DNA of 64,000 nt from Narcine bancroftii (taxonomy: Eukaryota), in assembly GCF_036971445.1 (NCBI RefSeq), contig NC_091470.1, positions 181,970,001-182,034,000 on the forward strand, given 5' to 3'. A model generated the notes under the pieces. It saw nothing but the letters and a program-made list of their open reading frames with translations, made no database searches and was not told the DNA's origin. A program made the translations under genes and the position numbers. Of this stretch, positions 22,403 through 50,082 are shown piece by piece (position 1 is the stretch's first letter; each line of letters starts with the position of its first letter).

Positions 22403-22930
22403 TGAGGAATGGTCACAGTGGGATAGTACATGAGGGGAATGGTCACAGGGGAAGGAATGGTCACTGAAGGTATAGAACCATCATTTTGGGCTGAGCCCTT
22501 CATCAGGAATGGAAAAATGTCAACAGGCATCTGAACAAAATGGTGATGGGGGTGGGGGGAGAGGAAAGCATAGTCCAAAAGGCAGCAGGTGGATAAGGAA
22601 GGGGAGTGGGTTGCTGAATGAATGGAGAGGGAAGGAGGTGGAGAGCTGGAGGAAGGAAGATGCAGGGACGGGGGAGAATAGGGAGGGTGCTAGCAGAAAC
22701 AGGTGAAGTCAATAATAATGCCATCCAGTTGGAGAGGGCCCAGAGAAAACTAATGGAATCAGGGTTAGGGTTAGGGTGGTCACAGTGGGATAGTGCATGA
22801 GGAATGGTCACAGTAGGATAGAATACAAGGAATGGTCACAGTGGAAGGAATGATGGTGGGATAGTACACAAGGAATGGTCAGTGAGATAGTTTGAGGAAT
22901 GGCAATGGTGGAATAGGGAATGATCACAGC
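22403..22930. repeat. Minisatellite (ggaatggtcacagtgggatagtacat) split by a Penelope-derived insert at about 22470-22760
   Basis: The same unit occurs on both sides of the insert. Confidence 0.7.
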
Positions 22931-22950
22931 TCTTCCTCGGGCATATTGGT

Positions 22951-22966
22951 GGCTCTGAAAAGAGCC
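22951..22966 (-). terminator. Histone 3' stem-loop of gene A, followed by U7 HDE
   Basis: aaaaGGCTCTTTTCAGAGCCaccaa, then purine-rich GAGGAAGAGCTGT. Confidence 0.95.
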
Positions 22967-22993
22967 TTTTGTGTTGAGGGTGGGGCTCCGACT

Positions 22994-23500
22994 CTAACGC
23001 GTTTTGCCTGCCCGGCGTTGCCGCCCCATGGCTCTAGAGGCAGAGACTCTCTTGGGCGCCGTGCGCTTGCGGGGGCTCTTGGCCGCCGGCTTCCTCACCC
23101 GCTTCTGGGCGGCCGCTTTGGCTCCTGACGCCGTCCTCTTCCTGGCGGGCGCCTTCCTCGTTGCCCCTCTTCCGCCCCGGACCTTGGCTTCTCCCTGCTC
23201 GCCCTCCGCCACCCCCGGCTCGGCGCGCAGAGCGGTAGTTCCCGTCTCATAGGCGGCCGCCGAGGCTACTTTCTTCGCCGCGGCGGCGCCCGCCCTGGGG
23301 ACCTGGCGCTCCTTGGCGGCGGCCACCGCCTCTAGGATGTGCTCGGCGACGGCAGCCGGTGCGCCTTTTTGCCGATGGGCCGCCTTCTTCTTGGCGGCGG
23401 CCAAGACAGCGGAGGAGGCAGGGGCGGCAGGGACCCCGGAGAAATCGGGACCAGCAGCACCGGTGGGAGCGTCCGCTTCAGCGGGAACAGTCTCGGCCAT
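22994..23500 (-). CDS. H1-like gene A, 168 aa, incomplete globular domain
   Basis: MAETVPA N-terminus, VAEHILEAVAAAKER (H1 helix 1), K/R/A/P tail with KSPRK; intronless, CpG-rich; histone stem-loop 27 nt past the stop. Confidence 0.8.
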   Translation of the reverse strand: MAETVPAEADAPTGAAGPDFSGVPAAPASSAVLAAAKKKAAHRQKGAPAAVAEHILEAVAAAKERQVPRAGAAAAKKVASAAAYETGTTALRAEPGVAEGEQGEAKVRGGRGATRKAPARKRTASGAKAAAQKRVRKPAAKSPRKRTAPKRVSASRAMGRQRRAGKTR

Positions 23501-25161
23501 CAACCCCTCAGAGTCGACGCTCACCGCGCCAAGTGGCGGCGCTGACGCCCAGTCCGACCTATTATGAGGGGAAGGCGGACGGGGTGGAGCCGATGCGCTC
23601 GGCTCCGCCTCTATCCGCTGCCCCAATCACACCTAGCCCCGCCTACCAGTCCTTCCCTCGCCTGCCGCCCCACAGCCTCCCCGCCCGAAGCATCGCCGCC
23701 TCCTCAAACGTGATCCCATCACCAGCCACATCTTCCCTTCTCCGACCGCGTCTTTCTCGTCCACTCCTCCCTCCTTACCAATCGCCCCCTTGGCACCTCC
23801 CCCTGCGGGAGATGCTGCCCTTGGGTCCACATCCCCTTCCCTCACCACCACTATGGGCCCCAAACGCTCCTTCTAAGTGAAGCAACACTTCACTTGTGTA
23901 CTCGTGGGAGGCTAGAAAGGCCGTTCGGCCCTTCTAATCTGTGCTGGCCAATAAAACAAGCTAGTCCCACTGAACTACTCTCTTATCCATGCATTTATTC
24001 AATTTATTTACCTACTGCTCTGGCCTCTTCTACAACATAGAGACTGGCCACGGTCTGGGAGCTCGTTACGCTGAGTCTCTTCAGTCCATCCGCATGACCT
24101 CCCAGTGGCCAAACATTTCAATACTGCGTCCCTCTCCCGCGCCGACGTATCTGTCAAACCAGGGCTACCTGTAAATTTGATATGAGGAGCAACCCCTCAT
24201 ATCCCGTCCGAGCGCTCTCCAACCGGATAGTTTTAACTACGAATTCTCCGGTTTCTGCTAGCCCACTCCCCGTTCTCCTTCTCTTCCCCGTCCCTCTGTC
24301 TTATTTCCTTCCAGCTCTCCACCCACTTCCCTCTGCATTCACAGAGCCATCCCCTCTTCCCCGTTTATATGCGCTCCCTCCCTTCTCCACATATTACCTC
24401 CTGCTTGTGGGCGCGTCCTCCTCCCCCTGTCCCTCCATTTCATTTGCATATCTGCCTACCATACCCTGATGAGGCTTAAGACCAAAAAGGTTGGTTGTCT
24501 TTGCTATGTTAAACGTTGGTTAAATCCTTGCTGTTTGACCTGATGACTTTCTCCAGTTCAGTGTTTTACTGGGGGTGGGTTGTGGGGAGAGTTCGGGGAA
24601 CTAACATCATTACGGCCCGAAAAGCTGCAAACTAATCTGATGGATCAGCAAGTTGGGGGTTGGTTCACGCACCGTCGCGGCGGGTTGATCGAAGGAGCCG
24701 GACGCAGATCGGAAGGAGCGGATAGGAGAGAATAAAGAACCGTAAACAGATAACAAATGTAAACAGACTCTGCAATACAGACAGAACAAAGAAAATCAAT
24801 AAAGTGCACAAGTCCTTATATGAGTCCGAGTTTGGTTTTGAGTGGGGTGGTAGCTGTGTCCTGAACCTGGTGATGCAAGTCTTGCGGGACGCTACCTCTT
24901 TCCTGATGGTAGAAGCAAGAACAGATTCATCTTAAGAATCGTTTTGATAATGATTGGATTGATAAAAGGTTTTGGGTTTAATATGGTAAGAACAGAGCAT
25001 ATGCTGGGTGGCGTGGGTCCTCGATGATCGCTACTGCTCTCCGACGGCTGCATTCCCCGCAGATGGGAGGGTTTTACCTGCAATCCATCCCTTAAAAATC
25101 ATTTTGTAAATTGAACACAGTACAAGTGGTTATTGCAATCTACTGCGTAAATATTGTTGGA

Positions 25162-25177
25162 GGCTCTGAAAAGAGCC
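25162..25177 (-). terminator. Histone stem-loop of gene B with AATAAA abutting its 5' side
   Basis: AATAAAcGGCTCTTTTCAGAGCCtccaa; no convincing HDE seen. Confidence 0.9.
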
Positions 25178-25203
25178 GTTTATTTCGAATTCCAAACTTT
25201 AAT

Positions 25204-25683
25204 TTACTCCGAAGGCCATTTCGTTTTCAGCTTTTTTTTTCTATTTTGGGTTTTACGTTTTTTCTGGCCATTCGGTTTCTGCTTCTTGGTTCCCTTCTTG
25301 GCCTTGGTTTCAGTCGCAGCTTCCTTCTGCTGTCGTCTCTGCCGCTTGCTGAGGTCGAAGGAGTCCGAGGTCCTCTTGCCGCCTTTGGTCTGCACCAACG
25401 AGCCGCTGCTCACCAGGCCCTTGACCACCTTGTCGAGCCGGGCCTTGTCCAGTTCCACGTCGTAGCCATTGGCCAGCAGCACCTCCCTCAGCGAAGCGAG
25501 CGACAGGCCCCCGCGCTGCTTGCGGACGGACAGAGCCTGCAGGATCAGCTGCGAGATCCGCAGGTCCTGCTTCCGCCGGCGCCGGCCAGGCCGCGGCTGG
25601 CGGAGCTGGTGCTTCTTCTTCGACTTCTGTGGCTGCTCGGCTTTAACGCCAGGAGTAGGGGTAGCCCTGCGCCCCTTGGGCAT
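25204..25683 (-). CDS. H1-like gene B, 159 aa
   Basis: Winged helix ISQLILQALSVRKQRGGLSLASLREVLLANGYDVELDKARLDKVVKGLVSSGSLVQTKGGKRTSDSFDL; short K/Q tail; TTTAAA and a CCAAT box upstream. Confidence 0.9.
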   Translation of the reverse strand: MPKGRRATPTPGVKAEQPQKSKKKHQLRQPRPGRRRRKQDLRISQLILQALSVRKQRGGLSLASLREVLLANGYDVELDKARLDKVVKGLVSSGSLVQTKGGKRTSDSFDLSKRQRRQQKEAATETKAKKGTKKQKPNGQKKRKTQNRKKKLKTKWPSE

Positions 25684-28600
25684 GAGTCTGAACGCCGGGT
25701 AAGGAGCGGTACTCCTCCCCCAGCAGAGCCAGAGGACACCGCTCAAACACCTAAGCGGACGTCGGCCTTTAAAGATGCAAGGCGGACGTCGGTGGAAACA
25801 ACCTCCGGCGGCGTCCTCCAGAACCCACCAATCATGTGCCTCCTCTGCTTGCAACAGCGAGGCAATTTTGCCGCGCTCAGGCCGGACTCATCGACGCCCC
25901 GAATCTCTGGGCGATGGTAAACTTAAATGAAAATCAGAATGTGTCCCTCATGAACATGTCACGAAATTCATTGTTTTGCGCCAGGGCAGACATTGCTGTA
26001 AATTACCCTTCAAAAAAAAATCAATAGTGTAAGATAGGAAAAAAAATGGGTTCATTGTGAATTCAGGAGGCAGAGGGGAAGATGCTGTTTCTAAAACGTT
26101 GAGTCTCTTCAGGCTCCTGTACCTCCTTCCTGATGGTAGCAGATGTTATCAGATCAGCTGTGAGCTCACTGAATGGTGCAGCAGGCTCCACAGGCAGAAT
26201 GACCAACTACTGCTCCTTCTTCTTACATTCTTATGAACACATGTCATGAAATTAGTTGCTTTGCGGCAGGAGTGCTGCACAAAAATCCCTGTCAATTGCA
26301 TTTCTGTGAATACTCTCTTTAAAATTAAATAAATACGTGCAGAAGAGAGAAAGTGAGGTCGTGTCTATGGTTCGTTGTCAATGGTGGAGGCTGTTTCTGA
26401 AACGTTGGGTCGTCTTCAGTCTCTTGTCCCTCCCTCCTGATGGAAGCAGAGGGCACAGCCTGGGGATGTTGGTGGGGGGGGAGGGTGTCCTTGATAGAAG
26501 CTGCTTCCTTGAGACGTCTCTTTGGAGCAAACACCAATGCCCATGATGTCACTGGCCTCAGTTCAGAACCCAGACATAATGTCCCCAAAATCTCAAGGCA
26601 AGTTGGAATGGAAAGGACTTTTTGTGGGCTGCAAATGTCTGAGAAATGCAAAATATTGGTTTGTTGAACATCCTGAGATAATATAATGAAATTTGAATCC
26701 ATTTGTTCATGCAGAGCATCTTCCACAATATTTCAAATTAAGATTTCTCTTTAATGATGTGGAACAAGAAAGTCTGTGATTGTTGTTTACACAAGAATGC
26801 TGGAGAAACTCGGCAAGGCACGCAGTGTTCTTTCTTTTGTAGCAAAGACTTGGCAAATTGTTTCTTAAATGTACCCTTTACCTGACTGTTTTTCCCCCTT
26901 TGGTATCCGGGCGGGACTGTCTACGAGGAACGAATTAAATCCATATTTTGGAGACCCACACTGCGGAAACTGACTAAACTAAGCAGCTTAATAATCCATA
27001 TCGAAATGTTACATGTTAGTTAGTGAAATACATGAGCTGGTCTGTTACACGCGCAGCTAATCAAATGCAAAATTGGCAATTTTAACATAACTGCCACCTC
27101 TTGAGGCCTAGGTTGTTATTGTTCACAAAACACTCATAGAAAATATGTCGTCTGGAACAATTTAAAGGGAAACGAGAAAGAACCAGTTTAAAATGAACCC
27201 ACCTGTCACGACTGTGGTTTTTTTAATGTTTACTTGTATGCTGCATTTGTTTATTTTCATCAATAAAGCAACATTAAGTTATCCCAATAAACATAGCCAT
27301 TTAAGTACCTTGGAACAATTGGAAAGTGGGATGTGGTCAGATTACTGTCTCCCTATTTAAAAAAAAATTATGTTGTCTCGTTTGAATGGGATCACTGTTG
27401 GTTCGATTCACTAATCAATATACAAAACACACATTTTAAATGTAGGTGATTTTAAGAGGGTGCTGCTACAAATAAATCATCCCTGAATCCAATCTAGGAA
27501 ATATTCTGCTTCTTTCTTGATGAAGGTCTCAGGCCCAAAATGTTAGCAATATTTCTTTGTCTCCAGAAAAGACCGGCTGCACTCCTCCAGCATTTTGGCG
27601 TGTTTTTAACCACAGTCACGTCGTCTGCAGCCTTTTGTGCTTCACCCAATCTAAGAAACACATGGATCACTGCTTGAAGTCTTTGGAATGGGAGATTTTG
27701 TGCAGTGATGTTCATTTCACTTTATTGAAGCAGAGCGACAGGAATTTCTGACTGTGTTAATGTGCTGGGTTTTGAGTTCATGTCACTTCCCAGCTCTCGG
27801 TGCACAACTCCTCAAACACCCATGGACTGGAGAATGCTGTTTAGTTGGGGTTCAAACTGTAAACTTGGCTTAATTAAATCAGCCCATGTTTCAACAACCA
27901 ATTCCATCTTTTAACCTTGAGTTGACTTTTTTTTCTCTCTGGGGTTTTTTTTTCAATTATTTTCAAAATTTATGGATCAATTATTTTTGCTCTTTATCAA
28001 AAATCTTTTCTTTTTTATTCTTCCTCATTTTTTGTACTATTATTATTGAAATTAGTAGTTGACACTTGGTTTTGATTGTAATTGTTCAGATAATAGGTTG
28101 GGATTAGAAATTACATTAGTTACAGATTTTTTTCATATATGTGTATCTTGTTTACCGTTTTGTTTACTATCTGTCATTTTAATTCACTTTTACCTGAACT
28201 TTATATCATATGTATTTATGATATAATTATCTTATCAAAAACCAATGAAAAGATTGAAAAAGAAGATTTATGGTTTTGCTTGAGCTTGGAGAAAATTAGA
28301 TATTGTAGCAAGTCGGGTCAAACCGCATATGATGGGCCGAATTGCCATAACAGGGCACAGGGGCTTCCCCGCCCCCCCACCACCGCACAGAAGTTACAGG
28401 CTGCAGGAGTGCATTGCCAGGGGAATGGCCAGGCCTCACAGCATCATTATGACATCACTCCTGTGAGCCTGTTACACCACCCCCCCAAAAAAAGGAATGT
28501 GTGTGGTTTGAATAAACGGCATTTAATGGTTTACTTGCTTGGTGTGGACAGCAGCTCTGCCTTTAGCAGTGCTACAATATAACATTAAAGAGTTCTTAAT

Positions 28601-28729
28601 TGAATTTGATAAGGTATGGGCCCATTTACGGATTATTATCATAGATAGAATACTGCTGCAATTCACTCCACAACATGCACTACATCGCTAGCTCTCCACT
28701 CAGCTCCAGATCACCTCAAAAACTCATTC

Positions 28730-29725
28730 TGTTATGAGCCCAGAGGACACCCCAAAACCCAGCAGCAATAGAAATTCACCAAGACAAATGGTTGCTTAAA
28801 CAAAAGTTGCTTTTAATTATCTATGAACATGAAAACTGGATCAAACTTTAACTTATCACTATTAACTTACTTAACCTAACTTAACCCACTTCTAATTCTA
28901 AGTGCATGTGTGTGTGTAATGTGTATGTAAGTTCTGTAAAGTTCTTTGATTCACAGTCCATTCTCATTCCTCCAAGTTCATTGGTTGCAGCAATTCTTAT
29001 ACTGTGGACGGAATTTAACATTTATGATGTTCACCAGGCTTTGGTGCTTGAACGGTAAATGGTTACCACTCAGGAAGGTTCTTGTTGGTTTTCAGAGAGA
29101 GATTTGTTCTTCGCTGGTCACCCACAACTCCTTCCTTTTAATCAGCCACTTCAGTATTTTGCCAAAGAAACTTGCCCCATCAGGGTTCTTCAGTTGATAA
29201 CCTTTATTTCAGGTCACCACAGATTTCCTTTTTGTTTCCATTATTTCAAGTGAAACATGATGCAGCTAGTCCTTTCCTCTTGTATGGACCACATGAGCTT
29301 TGACCAGGCTGAACTAAGGACTCTCAACCTGTCATCCAAATGGGGTTTTCCACAAGCTTGCCATCTAGTCCTGATCCAATCCCAGCTACTGCTGCTGGCT
29401 GTAACACTGTAGAACTGAATTCCCTCTTTTTCTCTCAGAGAAAAAACCTGTTTGACTCCTTCTCTGCTTGCAAAAACCACACTCCAGGACAGGCTAGGCT
29501 CCGAACCTACTCCTCCAGCTCTTTCATCTGTTGCTTTTCAAAACAGCAATCCATTAGTGAAGTCGCTTGGGCACTCCCCAAAGCTCTTCCAAAGGCTCTG
29601 GGAGCTGGCCTGTCCAAGCTTGAGCAGAGCTCCAGTATTTTAAATCAGTTCTGTGAAGTGACCAACACTAAAAAAAAGAACCTGCCCCAATTTATCTCCC
29701 AAAAGCATATCTATAATCTGTCACA
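28730..29725 (-). mobile_element. ~1-kb solo LTR-like element
   Basis: TGT...ACA termini; homologous along its length to 31173-32128; no clean TSD. Confidence 0.75.
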
Positions 29726-30148
29726 CTTTGATCGTTCAGCATTCTCACTGCCCCTGGTAAGAAGCCACACCATTGGCTGCAATGGAGTGCGATTCCTGAT
29801 TGACCTGTGTTACTGCAGCGACCTTTAGAGAAGTGTTTCAGAAATAAAGTAACCCCAGACACCACCGATTCTTTCTGAAACATCTTCCTCGGCCGCTCGA
29901 CAGGGAAGGGAAATGTTGAACGCCGACCGAGCGTCGAGCCCATTGCCCAATTTCTGCCGAGGAATGGGTCAAACAGGGAGGCGCCCCGATGAGTTTGGGG
30001 GACCGGGCGGTGGTGGGGGCGAGTTGGGGCGACCGCGGGCGGAGACGCCGGGGGATTCCGAGGCACGGCGGCCGACGGGTCGGCATGCGGCGGGTCGGGC
30101 GTGACGGGGAGGGCGGTTTGGCCGGCTCTCCGGGGATTTGGCGGAGGG

Positions 30149-30240
30149 AAGAAACACAAATCGGGTGTTGGGCGACCCAGCGGCGGCGGCGGAATCGGGG
30201 AGGGGGGTCTCCTTTCCGTCCGCTTCCCGGGTACAAAGGG
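30149..30240 (+). promoter_or_regulatory. H1-type promoter of gene C
   Basis: H1 (AC) box AAACACA at 30152-30158, G-rich box, TATA-like TACAAA at 30232-30237. Confidence 0.7.
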
Positions 30241-30292
30241 GATCTCCTGCGCGTCGAGTTCGACACCCTTGCGGCAGCGGGAAGAGGACGCC

Positions 30293-30937
30293 ATGGCTGA
30301 GGAGTCGAGGACCGAAGACGTCGGCGATCTCGGCCGAGGGGGTGGCGGCGGAGCAGTGGCCAGGAGCAAGAGGAAGCGGCCGCGGGGCCGTCAGGGCGCC
30401 GAGGGTCCCACGGTGACCGAGCGCGTCCTGACGGCAGCGGCGGCCACCGAGAAGCGGCGCGGCCTCTCGCTCACCGCCCTTAAGAAGGCGCTGGCGGCCA
30501 AGGGCTACGACGTGGCGCGGCACAACGGCCGCGTCAATCGCGCTGTCCGCCAGCTGGTGAAGCAGGGGTCACTGGTGAAGACCAGCGGCGCCGGCGCCGC
30601 CGGTTCCTTCCGCCTCGGTCGGGCGGCGAGTGCCGGGTCCCGGCCGCCGCCGGCCCAGCGGGCCAGGAAGCGGCCGAGCAAGAGGGCCACCCCGGCGGCG
30701 CTGCGGGCGAAGGGCAGCCAGGTCTCGCAGCAGGGCAAGGGGGTGACCAGGCCCAGGAGCGCTCAAAGCCGACGCCTCAAGGTCAAGGCTTCCTCCAAAT
30801 ACAAGGCGGCCCGGGCCAAGAGACCGGACAACCCCAGAAGGAGGCGGCCGCCCAGCAACGCGCCGAAGCTACCGGTCGGGCGCCCGCGACTCCACCCAGT
30901 TGCCCAAAGATCGAAAGTGCCCTCCGGGGTGAAATGA
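30293..30937 (+). CDS. H1-like gene C, 214 aa, Arg > Lys
   Basis: gccATGG Kozak context; GPTVTERVLTAAAATEKRRGLSLTALKKALAAKGYDV...LVKQGSLVKTSGAGAAGSFRL winged helix; hand count about 35 R and 20 K. Confidence 0.93.
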   Translation: MAEESRTEDVGDLGRGGGGGAVARSKRKRPRGRQGAEGPTVTERVLTAAAATEKRRGLSLTALKKALAAKGYDVARHNGRVNRAVRQLVKQGSLVKTSGAGAAGSFRLGRAASAGSRPPPAQRARKRPSKRATPAALRAKGSQVSQQGKGVTRPRSAQSRRLKVKASSKYKAARAKRPDNPRRRRPPSNAPKLPVGRPRLHPVAQRSKVPSGVK

Positions 30938-30966
30938 ACCTGCTCTCTCCGAACCCCCAACACAAA

Positions 30967-31000
30967 GGCTCTTTTCAGAGCCACTACATATAGCAATAAA
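30967..31000 (+). terminator. Histone stem-loop (30967-30982) plus AATAAA (30995-31000) of gene C
   Basis: caaaGGCTCTTTTCAGAGCCactacatatagcAATAAA. Confidence 0.92.
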
Positions 31001-31172
31001 ATGAGCCAAATGCCACTGCAAATTATTTAAAAAAATATATTCATATTTTATTTGTAAAAGATTGAGTTTAACATTAAATACAAAATTGACAATTCCATAA
31101 TCGTTTGTAAAGCATTTCAGTTCTCTGTCACATGTCTGTTCATGGCCTCCTGTACTGTCTCACCAAGACCCA

Positions 31173-32128
31173 TGTTACCAGCCCAGAGGACCCCAAAATC
31201 CAGCAGCAATTGATATTCAGCAAGACAAATGGTGACTTAAACAAAAGTTGTTGTTAATTATCTTTTAAATAGGATCAAACTTAAACTAACCTAACTTGAC
31301 CCCCTTCTAATTCTAAGTGCACTGTGTGTGGAAGTTCAGAAAAGTTTTTTAGTTCACAGCCCAATCTCACTTCACACCCCTCCAAGTTCACTGGTTGCAG
31401 GCAATTCTTACACCGTGCATAGAATTTAACGAGTATAAAGTTCACCAGGCTGCGGTACTCGAAAGGTAGATGGTCACCGCTCAGGAAGGTTCTTGTCGAT
31501 TTTCAGAGAGAGATTTGTTGTACGATGACATTCACAACTGATTCTTATTTAATCGCCCACTCCAGTGTCTTGCTGATGAAACTTGGGCCCTTCAGGGTTC
31601 TCCAGATGATAACCTCTTTTTTTCAGGTCACCACAGAGTTCCTTTCTGTTTCACTTATTCCAAATGAAACATTAGACAGCCTGTCCTCTCCTCTTGCATG
31701 GACCACAAAGGCTTTGACGAAACTGAACTAGGAATTCACAACCAATTTTCAAAATGGGGTTTTTCCACAAGCTTTCCAGCTTGTCCTATTCCAGTCCCAG
31801 CTGCTGTTGCTGGCTGTAACATTGTAGAATTATATATCACTCTCTCTGAGAGAAAGCCTGTTTGACTCTCTCTGCTTGCAAAACCTCTTAGAACAAGTTC
31901 TCTTCCAGACTGTCTGCGGCTCCAACAAGATCTTTCATCTGTTGCTTTTTGTAAACAACAATCCATTAAGTAAAGTCTCTTGAGCACTCTTCAAAGCTCT
32001 TGCCAAAACTGTAGAGCCGATATGTCTAGCATGGGGCAGAGATCTGTTTTAAAGTGTTTGTCTGTGACCTACTCTAACAAACCTTTCCCAATTTACCTCC
32101 CAAAAACATATTAATATACTCTGTCACA
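31173..32128 (-). mobile_element. ~1-kb solo LTR-like element (same family as 28730-29725)
   Basis: tgttac...ctgtcaca termini; shared blocks cccagaggac, acaaaagttg, ggttcttgt. Confidence 0.75.
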
Positions 32129-34952: not shown

Positions 34953-35176
34953 TGTAATGCACGTCGAAAGAACCAAAGACTTGTTGATCCAAACCAAGGC
35001 TTTTATTAACTAAAAGACTGGAGTGTATCACAAGTAGGTCGACCAGTCCAAAATGACCTAGTTTGGCTAAGAGCAATCCTTTAGGACCTGCCAGTAGGTG
35101 TAACTACACTCTCAGCCAATCAGTCATCCTACCATCTGTACATAGACACATTGGTGATAGAATCTGTACTATCACA
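34953..35176 (-). mobile_element. Gypsy solo LTR (224 bp) inserted in a CR1 fragment
   Basis: TG...CA termini; 5-bp TSD CACCC (34948-34952, 35177-35181); homologous to the LTR at 46366-46603. Confidence 0.88.
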
Positions 35177-35793
35177 CACCCTTAACCTGGTTTGTATCTC
35201 ACCAGCCCTCAGTAGGAAAAGTCTATCTGCATTTACTCTGAAAGCACTTCCAGGTGGCCAAAACACTCCCATGTTGAGCCACCTATTCTACCCCTACACG
35301 GCTGTCAGGAGGCCACCAGGAAATAGAGAACCCAACCAGTAAGGAGCACTTCCCTCACCTTCCTCCCGTAGGTATGACTTCCGGCTCCGAGCATCCCCCG
35401 TCGCACCCAAAAGCAGCAGTGGGACTTACGGCCGTAGTCGCCACCATTCGCGGCTTCTCTTTGAGCCAGCGCATCCGGGTGACAGAAAGGCAGCTTCTCC
35501 ATGGCCACCTGAACGTCTCAGCTGCACTCACCGGCCCATTATCTGCATTACGAGCACCTGAAGGCAGCTTCTGTCTACCACCCTGATCATTCTTCTGCAC
35601 TCTGGGGAATAAAGTCCTGAACTGTCTCTTTCCCTACAGTTCAAGTCTTAGCAACATCCTGGTAAATCTCTACCCTCAATCCTTTTTGCTCTCCCGTTAG
35701 TTGACAGGCTGAATGCAAATTTAGTCAAACCCAGAACCATTCCCTTTTTCCTTCCCCATCCACGTTACAGATCCTTTCTATAGTGTATTTGAC

Positions 35794-35809
35794 GGCTCTT
35801 AAAAGAGCC
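35794..35809 (-). terminator. Histone stem-loop of the H3 pseudogene
   Basis: GGCTCTTTTAAGAGCC, 27 nt after the stop. Confidence 0.9.
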
Positions 35810-35836
35810 ATTGTGCTGCGGGTTTGCGGAAGAAAC

Positions 35837-36246
<410 letters not shown>

Positions 36247-36272
36247 CCTGAGGCACTCGCAATTCAAGCGCC

Positions 36273-36343
36273 TTTTATACAACAACCGGCCCATCGGCGT
36301 CTTGTGATTGGTCAAGGGATTCACCGCCCTCGCACTTGATTGG
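36273..36343 (-). promoter_or_regulatory. H3-type promoter: TATAAAA and two CCAAT boxes 32 bp apart
   Basis: ttttata 36273-36279; attgg 36307-36311 and 36339-36343. Confidence 0.85.
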
Positions 36344-37299: not shown

Positions 37300-39858
37300 T
37301 CTTCTTTCTTTGGCTTGGCTTCGCGGATGAAGATTTATGGAGGGGGTAAATGTCCACGTCAGCTGCAGGCTCGTTTGTGGCTGACAAGTCCGATGCGGGA
37401 CAGGCAGACACGGTTGCAGCGGTTGCAGGGGAAAATTGGTTGGTTGGGGATGGGTGTTGGGTTTTTCCTCCTTTGCCTTTTGTCAGTGAGGTGGGCTCTG
37501 CGGTCTTCTTCAAAGGAGGTTGCTGCCCGCCAAACTGTGAGGCACCAAGATGCACGGTTTGAGGCGATATCAGCTCACTGGCGGTGGTCAATGTGGCAGG
37601 CACCAACAGATTTCTTTAGGCAGCCCTTGTACCTTTTCTTTGGGGCACCTCTGTCCTGGTGGCCAGTGGAGAGCTCGCCATATAACACGATCTTGGGAAG
37701 GCGATGGTCCTCCATTCTGGAGACGTGACCCACCCAGCGCAGCTGGATCATCAGCAGCGTGGACTCGATGCTGTCGACCTCTGCCATCTCGAGTACTTCG
37801 ACGTTAGGGATGAAAGCGCTCCAATGAATGTTGAGGATGGAGCAGAGACAACGCTGGTGGAAGCGTTCTAGGAGCCGTAGGTGATGCCGGTAGAGGACCC
37901 ATGATTCGGAGCCGAACAGGAGTGTGGGTATGACAACGGCTCTGTATACGCTTATCTTTGTGAGGTTTTTCAGTTGGTTGTTTTTCCAGACTCTTTTGTG
38001 TAGTCTTCCAAAGGCGCTATTTGCCTTGGCGAGTCTGTTGTCTATCTCGTTGTCGATCCTTGTATCTGATGAAATGGTGCAGCCGAGATAGGTAAACTGG
38101 TTGACCGTTTTGAGTTTTGTGTGCCCAATGGAGATGTGGGGGGGGGGCTGGTAGTCATGGTGGGGAGCTGGCTGATGGAGGACCTCAGTTTTCTTCAGGT
38201 TGACTTCCAGGCCAAACATTTTGGCAGTTTCCGCAAAACAGGACGTCAAGCGCTGAAGAGCTGGCTCTGAATGGGCAACTAAAGCGGCATCGTCTGCAAA
38301 GAGTAGTTCACGAACAAGTTTCTCTTGTGTTTTGGTGTGAGCTTGTAGGCGCCTCAGATTGAAGAGACTGCCATCCGTGCGGTACCGGATGTAAACAGCA
38401 TCTTCATTGTTGAGGTCTTTCATGGCTTGGTTCAGCATCATGCTGAAGAAGATTGAAAAGAGGGTTGGTGAGAGAACACAGCCTTGCTTCACGCCATTGT
38501 TAATGGAGAAGGGTTCAGAGAGCTCATTGCTGTATCTGACCCGACCTTGTTGGTTTTCCTGGTGCGAGAAAGTGACAAACGAGATGTGCTCCACACCAGG
38601 GTCATGCCCAGCGCGGAATGCCACACTGACCACCGGCTGGTTCGCTGCAAGCTCAACCTTCACTTCAAGCCAAAGCCCAGGAACAGTAAAGCCCCCAGAA
38701 AGAGGTTCAATGTTGGAAACCTGCAGTCAGACGAAGCGAGAGGAAACTTCCAGGCAAACCTCAAAGCAAAGCTTGACGATGCAATCCGCCTCACGGACCC
38801 GTCCCCTGAAACCCTCTGGGATCAGTTGAAGACTACCATCCTGCAATCCACTGAAGAGGTACTGGGCTTCTCCTCCAGGAAAAACAAGGACTGGTTCGAA
38901 GAAAACAGCCAGGAAATCCAGGAGCTGCTGGCAAAGAAGCGAGCTGCCCACCAGGCTCACCTTACAAAGCCGTCCTGTCCAGAGAAGAAACAAGCCTTCC
39001 GTCGCGCATGCAGCCATCTTCAGCGCAAACTCTGGGAGATCCAAAATGAGTGGTGGACTAGCCTCGCCAAGCGAACCCAGCTCAGCGCGGACATTGGCGA
39101 CTTCAGGGGTTTCTACGAGGCTCTAAAGGCTGTGTACGCCCCCTCACCCCAAGTCCAAAGCCCGCTGCACAGCTCAGACGGCAAAGTCCTCCTCAGTGAC
39201 AAGATCTCCATCCTCAACCGATGGTCAGAACACTTCCAATCTCTTTTCAGTGCCAACCGCTCAGTCCAAGATTCCGCCCTGCTCCAGCTCCCTCAACAGC
39301 CCCTAAGGCTAGAGCTGGATGAGGTCCTCACCCAGGATGAGACATATAAGGCAATCGAACAACTGAAAAGTGGCAAAGCAGCAGGTATGGATGGAATCCC
39401 CCCCAGAGGTCTGGAAGGCTGGCGGCAAAACTCTGCATGTCAAACTGCATGAGTTTTTCAAGCTTTGTTGGGACCAAGGAAAACTGCCTCAGGACCTTCG
39501 TGATGCCACCATCATCACCCTGTACAAAAACAAAGGTGAGAAATCAGACTGGGGAATCACGCTGCTCTCCATTGCAGGCAAAATCTTCGCTAGGATTCTC
39601 CTAAATAGAATAATACCTAGTGTCGCCGAGAATATTCTCCCAGAATCACAGTGCGGCTTTCGCTCAGAGGAACTACTGACATGGTCTTTGCCCTCAGACA
39701 GCTCCAAGAAAAGTGCAGAGAACAAAACAAAGGACTCTACATCACCTTTGTTGACCTCACCAAAGCCTTCGACACCGTGAGCAGGAAAGGGCTTTGGCAA
39801 ATACTAGAGCGCATCGGATGCCCCCCAAAGTTCCTCAACATGATTATCCAACTGCACG
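37300..39858 (-). mobile_element. RTE LINE with inverted 5' segment
   Basis: RT 3' part on minus (37300-38558); APE end/linker/RT start on plus (38557-39858); TSD CGTCCTTTACTAT at 37287-37299 and 39857-39869. Confidence 0.93.
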
Positions 39859-40479
39859 TCCTTTACTATAATGCTGGAGAAACTATACCAAAGGAGGTAA
39901 AACATGAAAGTCTGTAGACACCATGGGTGAAGTAAAAACACAAAGCTGGAGAAATTCAGCAGGTCAAACAGTGTCCTTTATGTAGCAAAGGTAAAAATAC
40001 ATCACCAACATTTCAGGCTTGAGCCCTTAATCAGGTTATAAGTAAAATGATGGCAGGCGAGTCTAGATGAGTATGTGGCCATAGAGCTTGAAGTCTGGGT
40101 GAGTACATAGTAGTGGGTTCTATAAAAAGGGGCAATGTCAGTTTACAGGAAGAAGATTGAAAACTTGGCTGAATGGGGCACCAACAACAACCAGAGTTGT
40201 ACGATCCAGTGATCATTGGGGGAAATCAGAGGTGAGTAAGTTAAAGTTCTTGGGAGTCACCATCTTGGAGGATCTTTCCTGCACCCAACACACTAATGTC
40301 ATTGTGAAAAAAGCACCCAGCCCATAACCGTCCATACCTCTCCCATCTATGTACCTGTCCCTGTTAAAATTAAGCCTGCATTTGCCACTTCATTCTGCAT
40401 TCCCACCACTCTCTGCAATGAAGATATTCCCCCTCACTTCCCCCACTCTCCCCACTGGCTTTTCCCCTTACATTTTCAC

Positions 40480-40850
40480 CCCTGCTCCCCCACTTCCTTC
40501 CCTTTCCTTATCCCCTTTCAACCCCCACTTCATTTTCCCCTTCCTTCTTCCCATTCCCTTCCTTCTCCAACTTCCTTCTTCCCCATTCCCCCTTTCCCTT
40601 TTCCTTCTTTCCCCTTTCCCCCTCCACCCCACTTCTCCCTTCCTTCTTCCCCCTTTTCACCTTCCCCCACTTCCCCTTCCTTTTTCCCCTTCCCCTTTCT
40701 TTCCCCTTCCCTTTACTTTCCCCCTTTTTTTCCTCCTTCCCCCTTTCATTCCCCTTCCCCTTTCTTTCCCCCTTCTTTTCCTCCTTCCCCTTTTCTTTCC
40801 CCCTTCTTTTCTCCTTCCCCTCCTCCCTTCTTTTCTCCTTCCCTTCCCCC
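40480..40850. repeat. Polypyrimidine low-complexity tract inside a minus-strand CR1 fragment (about 40320-40970)
   Basis: Almost pure C/T for about 370 bp; CR1 sequence resumes on both sides. Confidence 0.9.
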
Positions 40851-41155
40851 CGTGTCCTCTTATTTGTATCTCATCCACTCTCCGTGGAAAAAGCCTATCT
40901 ACATTTACTCTGTCTATCCCCCTAATTTTAAATACCTCAATCAAATCTCCTCTCATTCTTCCACGCTAATCTTCCTGGTACTCATCAGGACATGGACTGG
41001 TCAATTGTAATATTTTATAAGAAAGATCAATAATCTGGGCAGTGCATTCACATGGGGTTCACGTACATGCATCTGAAGCCAGGACAGTCATTTTAGCTTC
41101 AGAGAATCCAAAAAAAACAGTAATAAAATATTGTCTTTACTCGATACTGTCCTTT

Positions 41156-41171
41156 GGCTCTGAAAAGAGCC
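41156..41171 (-). terminator. Orphan histone stem-loop
   Basis: ccaaaGGCTCTTTTCAGAGCC, identical core to genes A-C; no histone ORF upstream. Confidence 0.85.
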
Positions 41172-41296
41172 TTTGGAGTTGAGCGTTTGTGGTTAGGATT
41201 TATCAATCAGACTGAAACGATTAAGAATAAAATACGATTGAAGTAAAAACGCAATGGGGAAACACAGCAGGTCACACAGTGTCCTTTATGTACATA

Positions 41297-41560
41297 CCCT
41301 CCATAATGTTTGGGAGAAAGACACTTTTTTCCATTATTTGCCCCTGTGCACCATGTTTTAAATTTGTAATCAAACAATTCACATGTAATTAAAGTACACA
41401 TTCCAGATTTTATTCAAGGTTTGGTTTGACCATGTAGAAATGACAGCATGTTTTTTACATAGTCCCCTCTTTTCAGGGCACTGTAATGTTTGGGACATTT
41501 GGCTTCACATGTTATGTTTAATTGCTTCATTGCTGCAGGTACAAGGGAGCTGGGCTTGCT
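41297..41560. mobile_element. Tc1-like terminal repeat remnant
   Basis: ccctccataatgtttggga at 41297 and the internal direct repeat taatgtttgggac at about 41484, as in IR/DR-type Tc1 ends. Confidence 0.5.
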
Positions 41561-43629: not shown

Positions 43630-44487
43630 CATATATAAAAATTACAGTATGGAAACAGGCCATCACCGCCCCTCTAGTCTGCACCGATTTAAGTGATCTC
43701 TAGTCCCACCTACCCACTCCCTGTCCATAACCCTCCAATCCCCTCACATCCATGCACTCATCCAACCATCTCTTAAATGACAAAACTGACCCTACTACAA
43801 TTACCTCCTCCAGAAGGTCATTCCACTCAGCCACCATTCTCTCATGTTACTTCTAAATCTTTGACCCCTAACCCTTAACTTATGACCCCTCATTCCAATC
43901 TCACCTACCCTCAAGGGGAAGAGCCTATTCACATCTACTCTGTCCATCCCCCTTATTTTTTAAATACCGCTATCAAATCCCCCATCAAGCTTTTACATTC
44001 CAATGAATAAAGACCCAGTCTACTCACTCTTTCTATGTATTCTAGATCCTGCAATCCAAGCAACGTTTTTGTAAATCTTTGCACCTCTCTACCTTATTGA
44101 TATCCATCCTATAATTTGGGACCAGAACTGCTCACAGTATTCCAAATTTGGCCTCACCATTACCTTGAATAGTCTCAATATCTCCTCCCAGCTCCTATAT
44201 TCTTTGCTTTGATTTATAAAGGCCTGAATACCAAAGAATCTTCTTCACCACCCTGTCTACATGAGCATCTAATTTCAAAGAACCATTATTCCAATATCTC
44301 TCTGTTCCTCTGCATTCCTCAATGCCCTCCTCTTCACTGCATATGTCCTGTTTTAATTATTCTTCCCAAAATGAAGCACCTCAGACTTATTGATATTAAA
44401 CTCCATCCGCCATCTTTCAGCCCACTCTTCTAAGCTGTCCAAATCCCTCTGCAGTCCCTGAAAACCTAGACAAATTTCTTCAAACTG
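43630..44487 (-). mobile_element. CR1-type LINE 3' fragment
   Basis: Minus translation LQRDLDSLEEWAERWRMEFNINKSEVLHFGKNN. Confidence 0.85.
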
Positions 44488-46603
44488 CCTGTCGGCTGAA
44501 CCTGACTTACAATTTGGACAAGTGTGTCTTCCGGACCACACGACTCGCGATTCTAGGTTGCGTGGTGGAGAACGGGATAGTCATGCCAGATCCTGACCGC
44601 ATGCGTCCCCTAATGGACGCTCCCCCCACCCCATACCCAGAAAGCGCTCAAATGCTCCCTGGGGCCTTTTCTCATATTACGCCAAATGGGTTCCACACTA
44701 TGCCGACAAGGCACGTCATCTTATCAAGACCACCTCCTTTCCCCTCTCGACCGAAGCCAGAGCGGCTTTCAATCGAATCAAATCCGACATCGCCACTGCG
44801 ATGCTGCACACGATCAACGAGTCTGTCCCGTTTCAAGTCAAGAGCGATGCATCCGACTTCGCCCTGGCAGCCACCTTGAACCAGGCTGGTCGGCCTGTAG
44901 CCTTCTTCTCCAAAACCCTCCAGGGTCCAGAGAGTAGACACTCCTCAATCGAGAAGGAGGCCCAGGCCATAGTTGAAGTGGTGCGTCGTTGGAGACATTA
45001 CCTCACTGGGAGGCGCTTTACACTGTTGACTGATCAACGCGCAGTCTCCTTCGTGTTCAGCAACACCCAGCGTGGTAAGATAAAAAATGACAAAATCGCC
45101 AGATGGAGAATCAAACTCTCCACCTTTAACTATGACACCCTTTACCGGCCTGGTAAGCTCAACAACCCGCCTGACGCGCTCTCCAGGGGGACGTGCGCCA
45201 GCGTACAGATGGACAGACTACAGAAACTCCATGAGGCGCTCTGTCATCCAGGGGTCTCTAGGTTTGCCCACTTTGTGAAGGCACGCAACCTACCCTACAC
45301 AGTCGAGGAGATCCGCTCCATGACCCGAGCCTGTTCGGTGTGCGCTGAATGCAAGCCCCACTTCTTCCGTCCAGATAACTCCCATGTTATCAAATCCACC
45401 CGCCCCTTCAAGCGTCTTAGCGTAGACCTTAAGGGGCCCCTACCGTTGACCAACCGTAATAACTACATCCTTACGGCCATCGACAAGTACTCCCGCTTCC
45501 CGTTCACTGTGCCCTGCCCAGACACCACTGCCACTTCAGTGATACAGTATTTTCGCCATTTTCGGGTACCCCAATTCCATCCACAGTGATAGGGAGTCCT
45601 CATTCATGAGCGCAGAGCTGCAACAGTACCTTCTGGAGTGTGGTATTGCTTCAAGCAGGACCACCAGCTATAACCCATGTGGTAACGGCCGGGTCGAAAG
45701 GGAGAATGCCACCATATGGAGAGCGGTTACACTGGCTCTCCGGTCTAAAGGTCTCCCCACCTCTCACTGGCAGGAGGTTCTCACTAGTGCCTTACACTCC
45801 ATCCGCTCCCTCCTATGTACCACAACAAATGCCACCCCCTACGAAAGGATGTTCCTTTTCCCGAGGAAATCCGAATCAGGAACCACTGTACCGGCATGGC
45901 TCACCGTCCCTGGCCCCGTCCTTTTGTGACGCCATGTCCGGCACTCAAAGAACGACCCCTTGGTCGACCGAGTGACTCTACTCCACGCGAACCTGCATTA
46001 CGCCTACGTTGAGTTCCCAGACGGGTGGGAGGACACTGTTTCGGTGCGGGACCTAGCTCAGGACGCAGTAGACCCAGCAAACCCCCCAACCCAACCTTCC
46101 CCAACTCTTTATTCCCCAGGCCCCATGCCGCAACAGAAGGACCAACAGCACCCCAACGACCTGGGCCACCCTGCCGACAACACGACTGGGGAATTGAGCG
46201 AAGGAGCGGTCACACCCGACGAGCCTGCTGGCGACCCCAATCCCAGCACCATGGCGGTCACGCCAGATGGTCAGACCCCCTGACCGCTACAGTCCTTAAC
46301 CTACCCCTTCCTTTCATTCTCTCCCTCGTTTTTTTTTCCAGGGTCGTTCTCTAAGAAGGGGTGAATGTGATAGTACAGAGCTATCACCAATGTATATAGT
46401 GTATATAATTACAGATTCTAGACTGTGCTTACAGCGATTGGCTGAGAGCTAAGCCACGCATACTGTCTGGGCCTTAAAGGGTTGTGTCCCTAGCCAGGTC
46501 GGATCATTTCGGACTGGTCGGCCACCTGTGAAGAGCTCCTGTCTTTTGCTAATAAAAGCCTTGGTTTGGATTGACAAGTCTTTGATTCTTTCGACGAGCT
46601 CTA
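44488..46603 (+). mobile_element. 5'-truncated Ty3/Gypsy LTR retrotransposon (RT end, RNase H, integrase, PPT, 3' LTR 46366-46603)
   Basis: SDASDFALAATL, SSIEKEAQAIV, LLTDQRA, HHCC zinc finger, NGRVERENATI; frameshifts and stops; PPT aagaaggggtgaa before TGTGATAG. Confidence 0.92.
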
Positions 46604-46911
46604 GAGTGAGGTCTTGCACTTTGGAAGACAAACCACGATAGGACATACACAGTTAAAAGTTATTGAGGAGTACGGTGGAACAGAGGGATCTGGAATACAT
46701 ATACAAAATTCCCTGAACGTGGTGTCACAAGAAGATAGGCACACTGCCTTGTAAATCAAAGCATCGAGAGTAGGAGTTGGGATTGATCGGTGAAGTTGTA
46801 TAAAATGATGCAACCGTATCTGGTCTCATCAGCCACAACGATGGGTTGCACTACAGAGAAGAAGTGGAAAATCTTGTGAAATGGTGCGAGAGTAACAAGC
46901 TGAGTCTCTAC

Positions 46912-47611
46912 TGTTATGAACCGCGCATAGCGAGCAGCAATAGGTAATGAATGTGTGATATACCCAAACCATTACAGTCCAGGCCAAAATCTAGAAAGTT
47001 ACTTCAAAGTTCAGCCTTTCAAACTCACCGTTGAAGTGTAGGCCTTTGAAGTGTGATGCCCAGAATTAACGTTGAACTGATGGGAAGACTGGAGTTGTGG
47101 CTACTACAGACTCACGAATTCTTCTTGCATTGCCTTTGAAGAAATGTCCATCCACACGAGCTGTGGTCACTACACTGGTCCTTCTGTAGGTGAGACTCGA
47201 ACTGGGCGGCCTCCATGGAGCTTCCAAGACCCAGGCACTGGTCTCTCCAAGTAACTTCACTGTTAGTCACAATCAAAATTAAGCATTTTGCTTCTCAAAA
47301 AGACCATCCTGGCACAGGTCAATCCACTGAAGAGTCCAGTCATCACTCTAAATTCCACAAATATGCCTGGCTGCTTCGAAGAGTATGATTTCTCCCTTTG
47401 CAAAATCACAATCTATCGAATTCTGGAACAGACTGTGACAAAGCCTTCCCTCAGTGCTTCCAATGTATCTAATTGTCACTGGGCTATGGCCTGTGTTATG
47501 ATGGTGCTTGTGTGAAATATTAATATTAACTGTGACCATTCAGTTCCTCCTGTCTATACTGTCCCTTACAGTGATAATCCCATTTTACTAAAATGGAAGC
47601 TTCTAATACAA
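46912..47611. mobile_element. Probable solo LTR inserted into a Rex-like LINE
   Basis: TGTTAT...AATACA termini; LINE sequence ctgagtctc / atgtggacaagac resumes across it. Confidence 0.5.
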
Positions 47612-48516
47612 TGTGGACAAGACAAAGGAGATGATTGTGAACTTTAGGAGGATCAGGGACCACCAGCCTCCACTACACATTAATAATACAGTAGTGAAGA
47701 CAGTAGAGAGCACCAGGTGCCTCAGAGTCCACTTTTCATCTATCCTGGATGCAGGAAGGCGCAACAACAACTGCACTTCCCGAGAAGACTGAAGTGGGCA
47801 AGGCTTCCGGCCACCATCACGTCAACCTTCTACAGGAGCTCTATCGAGAGCATCTTGTCCGGCTGCATCACAGGGTGGGCACGGTTGCTACAGAGAAATG
47901 GATTATAGGTCAATCCACAGGACCATGAAAGTGGCAAAGATTACTGTCGTCTCCCTCCCCTCCTCTCCCCACCTCTGCCCCCCACCACCACTCCTCTCAC
48001 CCTCAGCAAGGACCTCTTCCACCCTGCACACAACATCGTTCAGCTGCTCCCGTCGGGGGAAGAGGTACAGGAGGATAAGAGCCAGAACCACCAGGCCGAG
48101 GAAGAGCTTCTTCCCATGGGCAGTGAGGACACTGAACCCTCTCAGACTCCATAATCGAATTTCGGTCCACGACTCTTCACTCTGCCAGGATTTATATAAG
48201 ACAATAATTAATTGGAGCAGAAATAGGCCATTCAGCCCATCAAGCCTGTCCCACCATTGAGCCAATCCATTCTCCCAATGCCCGGCCTTCTCCCGGTAAC
48301 CTTTGATGCCCCTGGCTAATCAACAGCCAATGAATCTCTGTCTTTAATACATCCAGTGACCCAGCCTCCACAACATCCTGCGCAACACATTCCACAGACT
48401 CACCACCCTCTGGAATACACCCATTTCAGTGTAATTTAGGCTGGTAAAAGAGAATTGAACATCGAGTCCATTGCGATTTCTTCACCAGCCAGTTGTCAGA
48501 TTGTGAGTTTAGCTGC

Positions 48517-48861
48517 TTTCAGGTGGCCAGAATACCCAAATGTAAAGCTGCCTCTTCTACCCCAACGCGGATGTCAGGTGGCCACCTGAAAGCTGTGAAC
48601 CCTGCCAGGAGGAGCACTTCCCTGACCCTCCTCCTGTAGGTATAATCTCCGGCTTGGGGAATCCCCCATTGCACCTGAAAGGAGCAGCAGGACTTAAGGC
48701 CACGGTCTGCAGGGGCCGGCATTCGCTTGGACGTGGCTTCTCCTTCAGCCAGGGCGTCATGGTGGCAGGAAGGCGTCTTTCTCTGCGCCACCTGAACGTC
48801 CCAGCTGCACTCCCCTTAAGCTGCGTCTGCCGGCGCATTATCTGTGTTCGAGCACCTGAAA
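48517..48861. mobile_element. MITE with TTTCAGGTG...CACCTGAAA inverted ends
   Basis: Terminal inverted repeat, internal palindrome tcaggtggccacctga; second copy at about 35246-35565. Confidence 0.65.
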
Positions 48862-49297
48862 TCAGCTTTAGATAGTTGAGGAGATATACAATGGGAGGGG
48901 GGGGGGGGGAAGGGGAGGAGGAATTTATTTGGACTTTAATGCAGCCAACCTAGTGTGTTAATGACAGCAGGGTTAGCAAGATCTTCTTCTGCTGCACATG
49001 ACATTAGGGCCCCGGATCCTTATGGAATATAAACCTCAACTCTTCCTCTGAACGCCCAAGGTTCAATATATGCCCATGGGTCGAATTCGTCCAATGTTCC
49101 AACCGCGTAAACAGGGCGGGCGTTCCCTTCGGGGCGCCAAGGGCGACCTAATGTGGAGCCGGAAAGGCTGGCAGGGCTTGGCTGCGCCCCGAACCGCCGC
49201 TCGGGCGAGGCGTGGCGGCTGGCGGGAACAGGGCGGCAGGCGGGAACGGGCGGGCGCTCGCTCTTTCCTGCGCTCCCAGCTCGGTTTTGGGCCAGGA

Positions 49298-49350
49298 GAA
49301 AGCACAAACCCGGGTTGGGTGACTCTACCACGTCCGCGCCGCCACTATAA
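49298..49350 (+). promoter_or_regulatory. Promoter of H1-like gene D
   Basis: Variant H1 box AAGCACA (49300-49306) and TATAA at 49346-49350. Confidence 0.7.
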
Positions 49351-49414
49351 CCGCGGCCGCGGCGTCGCCGCCGGCATCATGGTGGCCCCCTGTAGTTGCG
49401 ACGAGCGGGAGCGG

Positions 49415-49999
49415 ATGGCAGAGACGGGCGCGGAGGTAACGACGGCGGCGGCCGCTTCCCCGCCGGCGGACGAGAAGAAGAAACGGCGGCCGTTTCGCCA
49501 CAAGAAGCTGGGTGGAGGTATGGCCGAGCAGATCATGAAGGCGGTGGCCTTGACCAAAGAGCGACGGGGTCTGTCGGTGGCTGCCATGAAGAAGATCCTG
49601 ACGGCCAGCGGTTACAACCTGGAGCGCCGCAACTCGCGCGTCAACCGCGCCGTGCGCACCCTGGTGAGCCGCGGCTCACTGGTGCAGACGGCCGGCTGCG
49701 GCGCCTCGGGCTCGGTCAGGCTCGGCGGCGGCCCCCTGGTGGAGCCGGCCGTGCGCCGGCGGCGAGCCCGGCGGCTGACGGCTCCGAGGAAGAGGAGGAG
49801 GACGAAGGGGCGCAGCCGGCGGAAGAAGGCGGGCACCTCGAGGAAGGCGGCCAGGCGCTGGCAAGGCAGCCGGGCGCGGCGAGCCGCGGGCCGGCGCCGC
49901 CCCGTGAAAGGTGTCGAGGAGGAGACGAAGGCGGCCTCGGACAGCGAGAAGCCGGCAAACTTGGAGCAGCAGGGAACTGCCGAGCTCGACAAGGGCTAA
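49415..49999 (+). CDS. H1-like gene D, 194 aa, protamine-like Arg-rich tail plus acidic C-terminus
   Basis: MAETGAE start; winged helix MAEQIMKAVALTKERRGLSVAAMKKILTASGYNL...LVSRGSLVQTAGCGASGSVRL; tail RRRRARRLTAPRKRRRTKGRSRRKK; hand count about 34 R and 18 K; in-frame upstream ATG at 49379 lies near the expected TSS. Confidence 0.93.
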   Translation: MAETGAEVTTAAAASPPADEKKKRRPFRHKKLGGGMAEQIMKAVALTKERRGLSVAAMKKILTASGYNLERRNSRVNRAVRTLVSRGSLVQTAGCGASGSVRLGGGPLVEPAVRRRRARRLTAPRKRRRTKGRSRRKKAGTSRKAARRWQGSRARRAAGRRRPVKGVEEETKAASDSEKPANLEQQGTAELDKG

Positions 50000-50076
50000 A
50001 CCACTTATACGATGTTAACTTAAAATGTAGCAAATTTAAAATGTAGCGAACTTGTGTCCTAAATGATTCTTGATGT

Positions 50077-50082
50077 AATAAA
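50077..50082 (+). terminator. Poly(A) signal of gene D
   Basis: AATAAA 77 nt after the stop; no histone stem-loop seen downstream. Confidence 0.7.

Follow-up and report, generated by a model that had tools for sequence, protein, structure and literature searches.

Histone genes have two ways of ending their mRNAs, at a stem-loop cut with the help of U7 small nuclear RNA or at a poly(A) tail, and the first has been taken to mark replication-dependent genes and the second replication-independent variants. This division, adopted in an earlier note on the DNA analysed here, is too strict, as genes carrying both signals are documented. Two chicken H1 genes and H2B in avian spermatids undergo dual processing, and H1.0/H5, H1.7 and H1.9/HILS1 are H1 variants with poly(A) processing only. 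The escape of histones from S-phase-only processing, and the approach of H1 to sperm proteins, are known mostly from mammals, birds and molluscs. We analysed a stretch of 64,000 nt from the electric ray Narcine bancroftii (contig NC_091470.1, positions 181,970,001 to 182,034,000 of the forward strand; hereafter the window), vertebrate DNA with many repeats, which holds four H1-derived genes, A to D, with four different 3'-end layouts.

The passages available from several papers describe close systems. Human HIST1H1C (H1.2) and HIST2H2AA3 have a poly(A) signal within the histone downstream element (HDE), and the latter is polyadenylated in mouse round spermatids (PMC5100578). H2A.X has dual 3' processing and a working HDE whose deletion stops U7 processing (PMC7807067). 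The germline histones H2B.1 and H2B.W have both a stem-loop and a poly(A) signal, and hexamer searches give many false positives (PMC8857922). U7 itself carries a conserved UCUUU box (PMC5054213), and orphon H1 genes are found in mussels (PMC6210712). On the protein side, protamines contain up to 80% arginine and measure 3-10 kDa, and the H1-related protamine-like (PL) sperm proteins are rich in arginine and lysine and measure 6-40 kDa (PMC11607694).

The durable finding at this locus is an old variant family with mixed 3' ends. With a little better than even confidence, we interpret it as an old cluster of cartilaginous fish beside VARS1, made up of intronless H1 variants that are divergent and enriched in arginine, the 3' end of each lineage having changed separately. 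As the four layouts occur at one locus, in lineages common to sharks and rays, the question of how histone genes leave S-phase processing becomes testable; the mechanisms have precedents, so the gain is comparative.

Results

The coding regions and 3'-end elements of the four genes, in window positions, are as follows.

22994..23500, minus strand: gene A, H1-derived, 168 codons, partial H1 domain match
22951..22966, minus strand: stem-loop of A, perfect 16-mer, Rfam RF00032 40.3 bits
22926..22935, minus strand: HDE of A, GAAGAGCTGT, 15 nt after the stem-loop, found by pairing with the HDE probe
25204..25683, minus strand: gene B, 159-aa H1 variant, the most lysine-rich of the four, PF00538 33.6 bits, six shark relatives, clade support 100
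25179..25184, minus strand: AATAAA of B, 1 nt 5' of the stem-loop within an A-rich flank, motif scan
25162..25177, minus strand: stem-loop of B, perfect 16-mer with no HDE after it, motif scan
25114..25125, minus strand: GU-rich stretch TTGTACTGTGTT, a candidate downstream element for the AATAAA of B
30293..30937, plus strand: gene C, 214-aa arginine-rich H1 variant, PF00538 55 bits, clade support 99
30967..30982, plus strand: stem-loop of C, perfect 16-mer, Rfam RF00032 38 bits
30995..31006, plus strand: AATAAA of C (30995-31000) overlapping a weak HDE remnant, AAAATGAGC (30998-31006), motif and pairing
49415..49999, plus strand: gene D, 194-aa arginine-rich H1 variant with an acidic C-terminal end, PF00538 55.1 bits, clade support 96
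50026..50082, plus strand: poly(A) signal region of D, with TGTA at 50026, 50042 and 50074 and AATAAA at 50077-50082, motif scan, no stem-loop

HDE pairing was scored as the duplex energy with a generic 10-nt consensus probe, possibly different from the ray's own U7, and compared with 1000 shuffles. The description of A in the earlier note, a stem-loop followed by a strong HDE, was confirmed: the element pairs with the probe at 10 of 10 positions (-14.6 kcal/mol; 0 of 1000 shuffles as good, P<0.001), and pairing is strong in A only. The layouts given there for B and C also hold. In B the hexamer stands directly before the stem-loop, and no HDE was detectable after it with the consensus probe (-2.2 kcal/mol, shuffle P 0.73). 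In C the hexamer begins 12 nt after the stem-loop, at the place of the HDE, where it overlaps a bulged remnant (-6.0 kcal/mol, shuffle P 0.07 with the same probe), so that C is not cleanly without an HDE. The gathering score of the Rfam Histone3 family (RF00032) was reached at A and C only.

Gene D has AATAAA 77 nt after its stop codon. No histone-type hairpin lies on its strand from 49901 to the window end at 64000, and a relaxed scan of the whole window found none for D either, so its description as having AATAAA alone stands. The three TGTA upstream are a context found at 3 of the 100 AATAAA sites in the window; UGUA is the binding site of CFIm. Because D lacks a hairpin and has AATAAA with three upstream UGUA, it most likely uses ordinary cleavage and polyadenylation. 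The motifs thus fit the poly(A)-only processing claimed for it, and use of the signal is what they predict. One candidate explanation of its 3' end, that the stop region ACAAGGGCTAAACCAC represents a former stem-loop, now deleted, and the acidic tail a frameshift from an arginine-rich frame, was rejected because skate and sawfish relatives share the tail and the stop position.

The layout of D, with no stem-loop and a poly(A) signal, is that of the poly(A)-only variants, and C, with its hairpin kept and a poly(A) signal in the HDE, has that of the dual-processed genes. B departs from the HIST1H1C type, in which the signal lies in or after the HDE, as its hexamer is 5' of the hairpin. On motif layout, C is a fair candidate for polyadenylation, for which the reading is plausible, and B a possible one. 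A single AATAAA is weak evidence. A+T makes up about 70% of the 3' flanks of B, C and D, and in a post hoc comparison the occurrence of the hexamer in at least three of the four genes had a probability of 0.022 in composition-matched sequence and 0.002 at the window-wide rate. U-content 21-60 nt past the hexamer is high in C (0.45), with 0.30 in B and 0.33 in D.

Protein C agrees at every position with residues 173-386 of XP_069771695.1, annotated by NCBI as histone H1-like from N. bancroftii. Three of the gene models are questionable. The models that the database gives for C (386 aa) and D (309 aa) have long N-terminal extensions that reach upstream of TATA-like boxes, and their starts are probably wrong.

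B, C and D pass the Pfam cut-off for PF00538 (22.4 bits). A search with D gave 13 matches among 5275 candidates. Apart from D they comprise one teleost protein and 11 proteins of cartilaginous fish, which range from skates to Callorhinchus. The search with B gave six matches among 76 candidates, all from sharks. For C, a word-index search returned two teleost H1s among 4470 candidates and missed the relatives found by HMMER; among 20 named from the 150 listed of 487 matches, the proteins grouping with C come from Hypanus, Hemitrygon, Rhinoraja and Carcharodon. Neither A nor B, in the form read from the window, was found in the protein collection examined, no search of large protein sets having been aimed at A.

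In a quick tree of 169 domains, with supports from the Shimodaira-Hasegawa-like approximate likelihood ratio test, B, C and D fell in separate clades (100, 99 and 96). C and D lay within a larger group of 34 rows (98), in which every named member is a cartilaginous fish, and B lay outside it. A 48-row tree agreed on the separate B, C and D clades and contained at least two further variant clades from other cartilaginous fish. No row of the trees was identified as H1.0/H5 or a mammalian spermatid H1. As their clades hold both sharks and rays, B and C are older than the split between these two groups, and a chimaera protein is among the relatives of D; these divergences lie more than 250 million and about 400 million years back, respectively. 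Relatives from different lineages lie on contigs of equal length in six species (Heptranchias, Heterodontus, Hypanus, Carcharodon, Scyliorhinus and Callorhinchus), which implies linkage. Some D relatives, those from stingray, devil ray, horn shark and bamboo sharks, have a decayed helix 3 and wing, so that repeated loss of the globular domain may be under way in the D lineage. We found no account of this H1 variant family in the literature searched, which leaves aside most subscription journals and supplements.

Gene A is harder to place. A Pfam search with it gave no match at E<=0.1, and it has no complete PF00538 globular domain. It covers only positions 4-40 of the 78-position hidden Markov model of the H1 domain, that is helix 1 and a degenerate helix 2, and in the domain profile helix 3 and the wing are either absent or beyond recognition. 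Single-sequence AlphaFold showed no wing in A and none in the control D, and is therefore uninformative; an Atlas search with A returned nothing above 0.85. Against five clade profiles A scored best with D (26.1 bits; the others 23.6, 17.7, 9.6 and 6.9), and in the free 48-row tree it fell within the D clade on a long branch (97.9/77). Approximately unbiased (AU) tests rejected no placement of A. A is probably a decaying copy.

The window also allowed the proposed protamine gradient to be examined. Arginine content rises from A to D (11.3, 11.9, 16.4 and 17.5%; exact P 0.042), the one monotonic measure of five. D has the most RR pairs, 14, with 1, 5 and 5 in A, B and C. R/(K+R) is 0.53, 0.40, 0.64 and 0.65 from A to D, equal in C and D, and net charge per residue is 0.14, 0.23, 0.21 and 0.19, so that D, with its acidic tail, lies below B and C. 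The order is not kept by the median arginine contents of orthologues (12.6% in six B proteins, 15.1% in eight C proteins and 12.6% in 11 D proteins). The most derived protamine-like proteins are marked by loss of the globular domain, and this loss runs opposite to the proposed order, being worst in A. The claim that D is the most protamine-like therefore stands for arginine content and RR pairs and fails for R/(K+R), net charge and the orthologue medians. All four proteins, at 159-214 aa with 11-18% arginine and 10-16 acidic residues each, are far from protamines.

Contigs from three sequencing runs of one study (X1, X2 and X3), classed as RNA by an automatic guess, were placed on 22860-31600 only. 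A, B and C all carry contigs of X1. One of these spans A from 23563 to 22911, over the stem-loop and 35 nt past the expected U7 cut, and another runs from the coding end of B through hexamer and hairpin to 24788 (24788-25314), where a dispersed repeat begins. Contigs that bridge the hairpins of A and B mean that extended RNA, precursor or DNA exists, in a share that they do not give. In random-primed libraries, reads of hairpin-ended histone mRNA stop before the hairpin, according to the passage available (PMC5100578). Adapter letters abut 25737 and 30275, positions that follow the TATA-like boxes of B and C by about 30-40 nt. In form the adapter is presumably that of a stranded RNA ligation kit, which fits RNA and start regions, a start not being provable from contigs. 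No listed contig covers the 3' end of C. The cover of X2 amounts to one 171-nt piece on B, none of the three genes A, B and C is covered by X3, and two intergenic bins of X1 are empty; missing contig cover proves nothing, and we claim no tissue restriction. Depth is about 32 on A and in the thousands on B and C, figures that cannot rank the genes. A reading of mean contig depth that would place most ends of B RNA at 25087-25224, and suggests signal on both sides of A, exceeds what contig depth shows and was not used.

The histone genes lie beside the minus-strand exons of a VARS1-like gene, which occupy the first 18 kb (window 1-18300) and comprise GST-like N-terminal exons and synthetase motifs. 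We take the motifs to be those of valyl-tRNA synthetase; a family search gave only a weak leucyl-tRNA synthetase match. In mammals VARS1 is a gene of major histocompatibility complex (MHC) class III, and this neighbour suggests that the histone cluster is MHC-linked. Ahead of all four H1 genes CGTCCGC is followed by a TATA-like box (A 23581 and B 25788 on the minus strand, C 30217 and D 49331 on the plus strand). The window has ten CGTCCGC sites, and the four with a TATA-like word after them are exactly the four H1 promoters. The word resembles what we take to be the H4-box core of replication-independent H1 promoters, and its sharing, as a sequence motif, hints at common transcriptional control of A to D. 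An AC-rich box also accompanies C (30152) and D (49299). One of these promoters and the further histone-type features of the window are:

49331..49350, plus strand: CGTCCGC and TATA-like box of D, word count over the window
35837..36246, minus strand: histone H3 pseudogene with a stop at codon 6 of the frame and one frameshift, CCAAT boxes and TATA recognisable
35767..35809, minus strand: its perfect stem-loop (35809-35794) and HDE AAAGGATCTGT (35777-35767)
41136..41171, minus strand: orphan stem-loop (41171-41156, perfect) with AGTAAA 14 nt downstream, motif scan

The pseudogene, its hairpin and the orphan hairpin were absent from the earlier note, though inside its interval, and so was the broken globular domain of A. 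Their probe duplex energies are -7.1 kcal/mol (H3 pseudogene) and -4.8 kcal/mol (orphan). The 5' flank of the orphan is of H1 type, 91% like that of A over 32 nt, and its AGTAAA occupies the position of AATAAA in C; upstream of it (from 41171) we found no H1 or core-histone coding remnant and no histone open reading frame. Elsewhere in the window there are retrovirus-like gag, pol and env reading frames (55120-61348, plus strand), identified by eye and without a family search, two LINE-like reverse-transcriptase copies (7817-9025 and 37300-38510) that are 96% alike and in opposite orientation, a Gypsy-like fragment (about 44800-46000) and a pyrimidine-rich low-complexity tract (40540-40850).

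Discussion

We propose that A to D descend from H1 genes with a hairpin and an HDE, a shared origin that we infer for all four, and that lineages reached the use of poly(A) separately. D would have lost both hairpin and HDE and turned to ordinary cleavage and polyadenylation. C would have kept its hairpin, with AATAAA arising in a weakened HDE, and the polyadenylated mRNA that it probably gives would still carry the stem-loop and might exist beside a U7-cut form, as in human HIST1H1C. In B, where we are least sure, the hairpin would have been kept and the HDE lost, and the AATAAA in the 5' flank may direct cleavage near the normal stem-loop end. A would have kept the ancestral signals while its globular domain decays. 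The hexamer stands before the hairpin in B and after it in C, a difference that points to independent gains. The likely benefit, which selection would have favoured, is a supply of mRNA outside S phase, possibly in germ cells; a germline role for A to D is a guess from their arginine richness and mammalian precedent.

A more extended form of this proposal, which we regard as speculative and rather doubtful, is that cartilaginous fish possess an undescribed H1 family, linked to VARS1 and the MHC, whose arginine-rich germline lineages number at least five and left U7 processing several times with the SLBP hairpin kept. In B the hairpin would lie between AATAAA and the cleavage site, and the poly(A) machinery would cut close to the former U7 site, giving an mRNA with both hairpin and tail. 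If this were true, comparing the lineages in sharks and rays would be a natural experiment on the exit of histone genes from replication-dependent processing.

Several observations weigh against separate changes of the 3' ends in an old cluster. In shuffled 120-nt 3' regions AATAAA arises with probabilities of 0.19 (B), 0.27 (C) and 0.30 (D), the flank that holds the hexamer of B is A-rich at all five stem-loops, and the downstream U-content of B and D is only average against the window median of 0.30. None of the 18 loose contig ends listed, with 285 further ones beyond them, is a poly(A) junction. Gene A has an open frame of 168 codons and perfect signals, unlike an old pseudogene. The Rhinoraja relatives of D and C are on contigs that differ in length, and orthologous shark or ray DNA was not found in metagenomes (one unrelated locus among 59 candidates) or viral contigs (no matches). 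A ladder with A at its base is among the topologies kept by the AU tests (P 0.56-0.67), and in this genome arginine content does follow the order of the earlier note.

Some of these points are also those of its rivals. Histone mRNAs of amphibian oocytes are cut at the stem-loop and then A-tailed without AATAAA, and the same might happen in B and C. Their hairpins are perfect, and for B both routes would give almost the same end, inseparable from sequence; this reading nevertheless leaves the loss of the HDE in B and the position of the hexamer in C unexplained, and we think it very improbable. The hexamers of B and C could instead be incidental, with both genes cut by SLBP and U7 at the stem-loop through weak HDEs and only D polyadenylated. 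Both hairpins are perfect 16-mers, the per-gene chance of a hexamer is not small, the loose ends listed hold no poly(A), and C keeps AAAATGAGC, which could pair with the UCUUU box as given in the available part of PMC5054213. B, however, has no detectable HDE, hexamers are jointly enriched (P 0.022), and the hexamer of C occupies the position at which HIST1H1C and HIST2H2AA3 have signals that are used (PMC5100578). We consider incidental hexamers unlikely, though a serious contender.

The earlier note had instead proposed a stepwise switch from SLBP/U7 to poly(A) processing, from A through B and C to D, that tracks protamine likeness. The monotonic arginine content, the RR pairs of D, the position of B outside the group of C and D and the retained A-basal topology all agree with it. 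Yet the four other measures are not monotonic, loss of the domain is reversed and the orthologue medians differ. Each of B, C and D is an old lineage of its own, the free tree puts A inside D, and at least two more variant clades exist. Even a ladder would not turn B and C into intermediate states, as they differ in the side of the hexamer. None of the four proteins is near protamine composition, as far as the available text of PMC11607694 describes it. The switch is thus unproven rather than refuted, and an ordered series tied to protamine likeness is in our judgement improbable. The preferred reading, of parallel states in separate lineages, is what the layouts suggest.

Comparison with known systems

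C most resembles HIST1H1C and HIST2H2AA3. Like them it is intronless and keeps the stem-loop, and its poly(A) signal follows the hairpin directly, inside the HDE. Unlike them, canonical proteins with demonstrated poly(A) RNAs, C encodes a divergent arginine-rich variant and is comparable in layout only. H2A.X, H2B.1 and H2B.W are variant histones with both signals, as are the genes here that combine them. B differs from H2A.X in having no detectable HDE and a hexamer 5' of the hairpin, a layout not met in the literature passages available.

D is like H1.0/H5, H1.7, H1.9/HILS1 and the mussel orphon H1 genes in lacking the hairpin and having a poly(A) signal, and the arginine enrichment and domain decay of some of its relatives resemble those of spermatid H1s. 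Unlike the poly(A)-only variants, D lies within a cluster of stem-loop genes and groups with cartilaginous-fish variants. The PL sperm proteins share with A to D their richness in arginine and lysine and the 6-40 kDa size, and with B, C and D an H1-type globular domain. The proteins of this locus, known here from genes alone, differ from them in containing only 11-18% arginine, with 10-16 acidic residues each.

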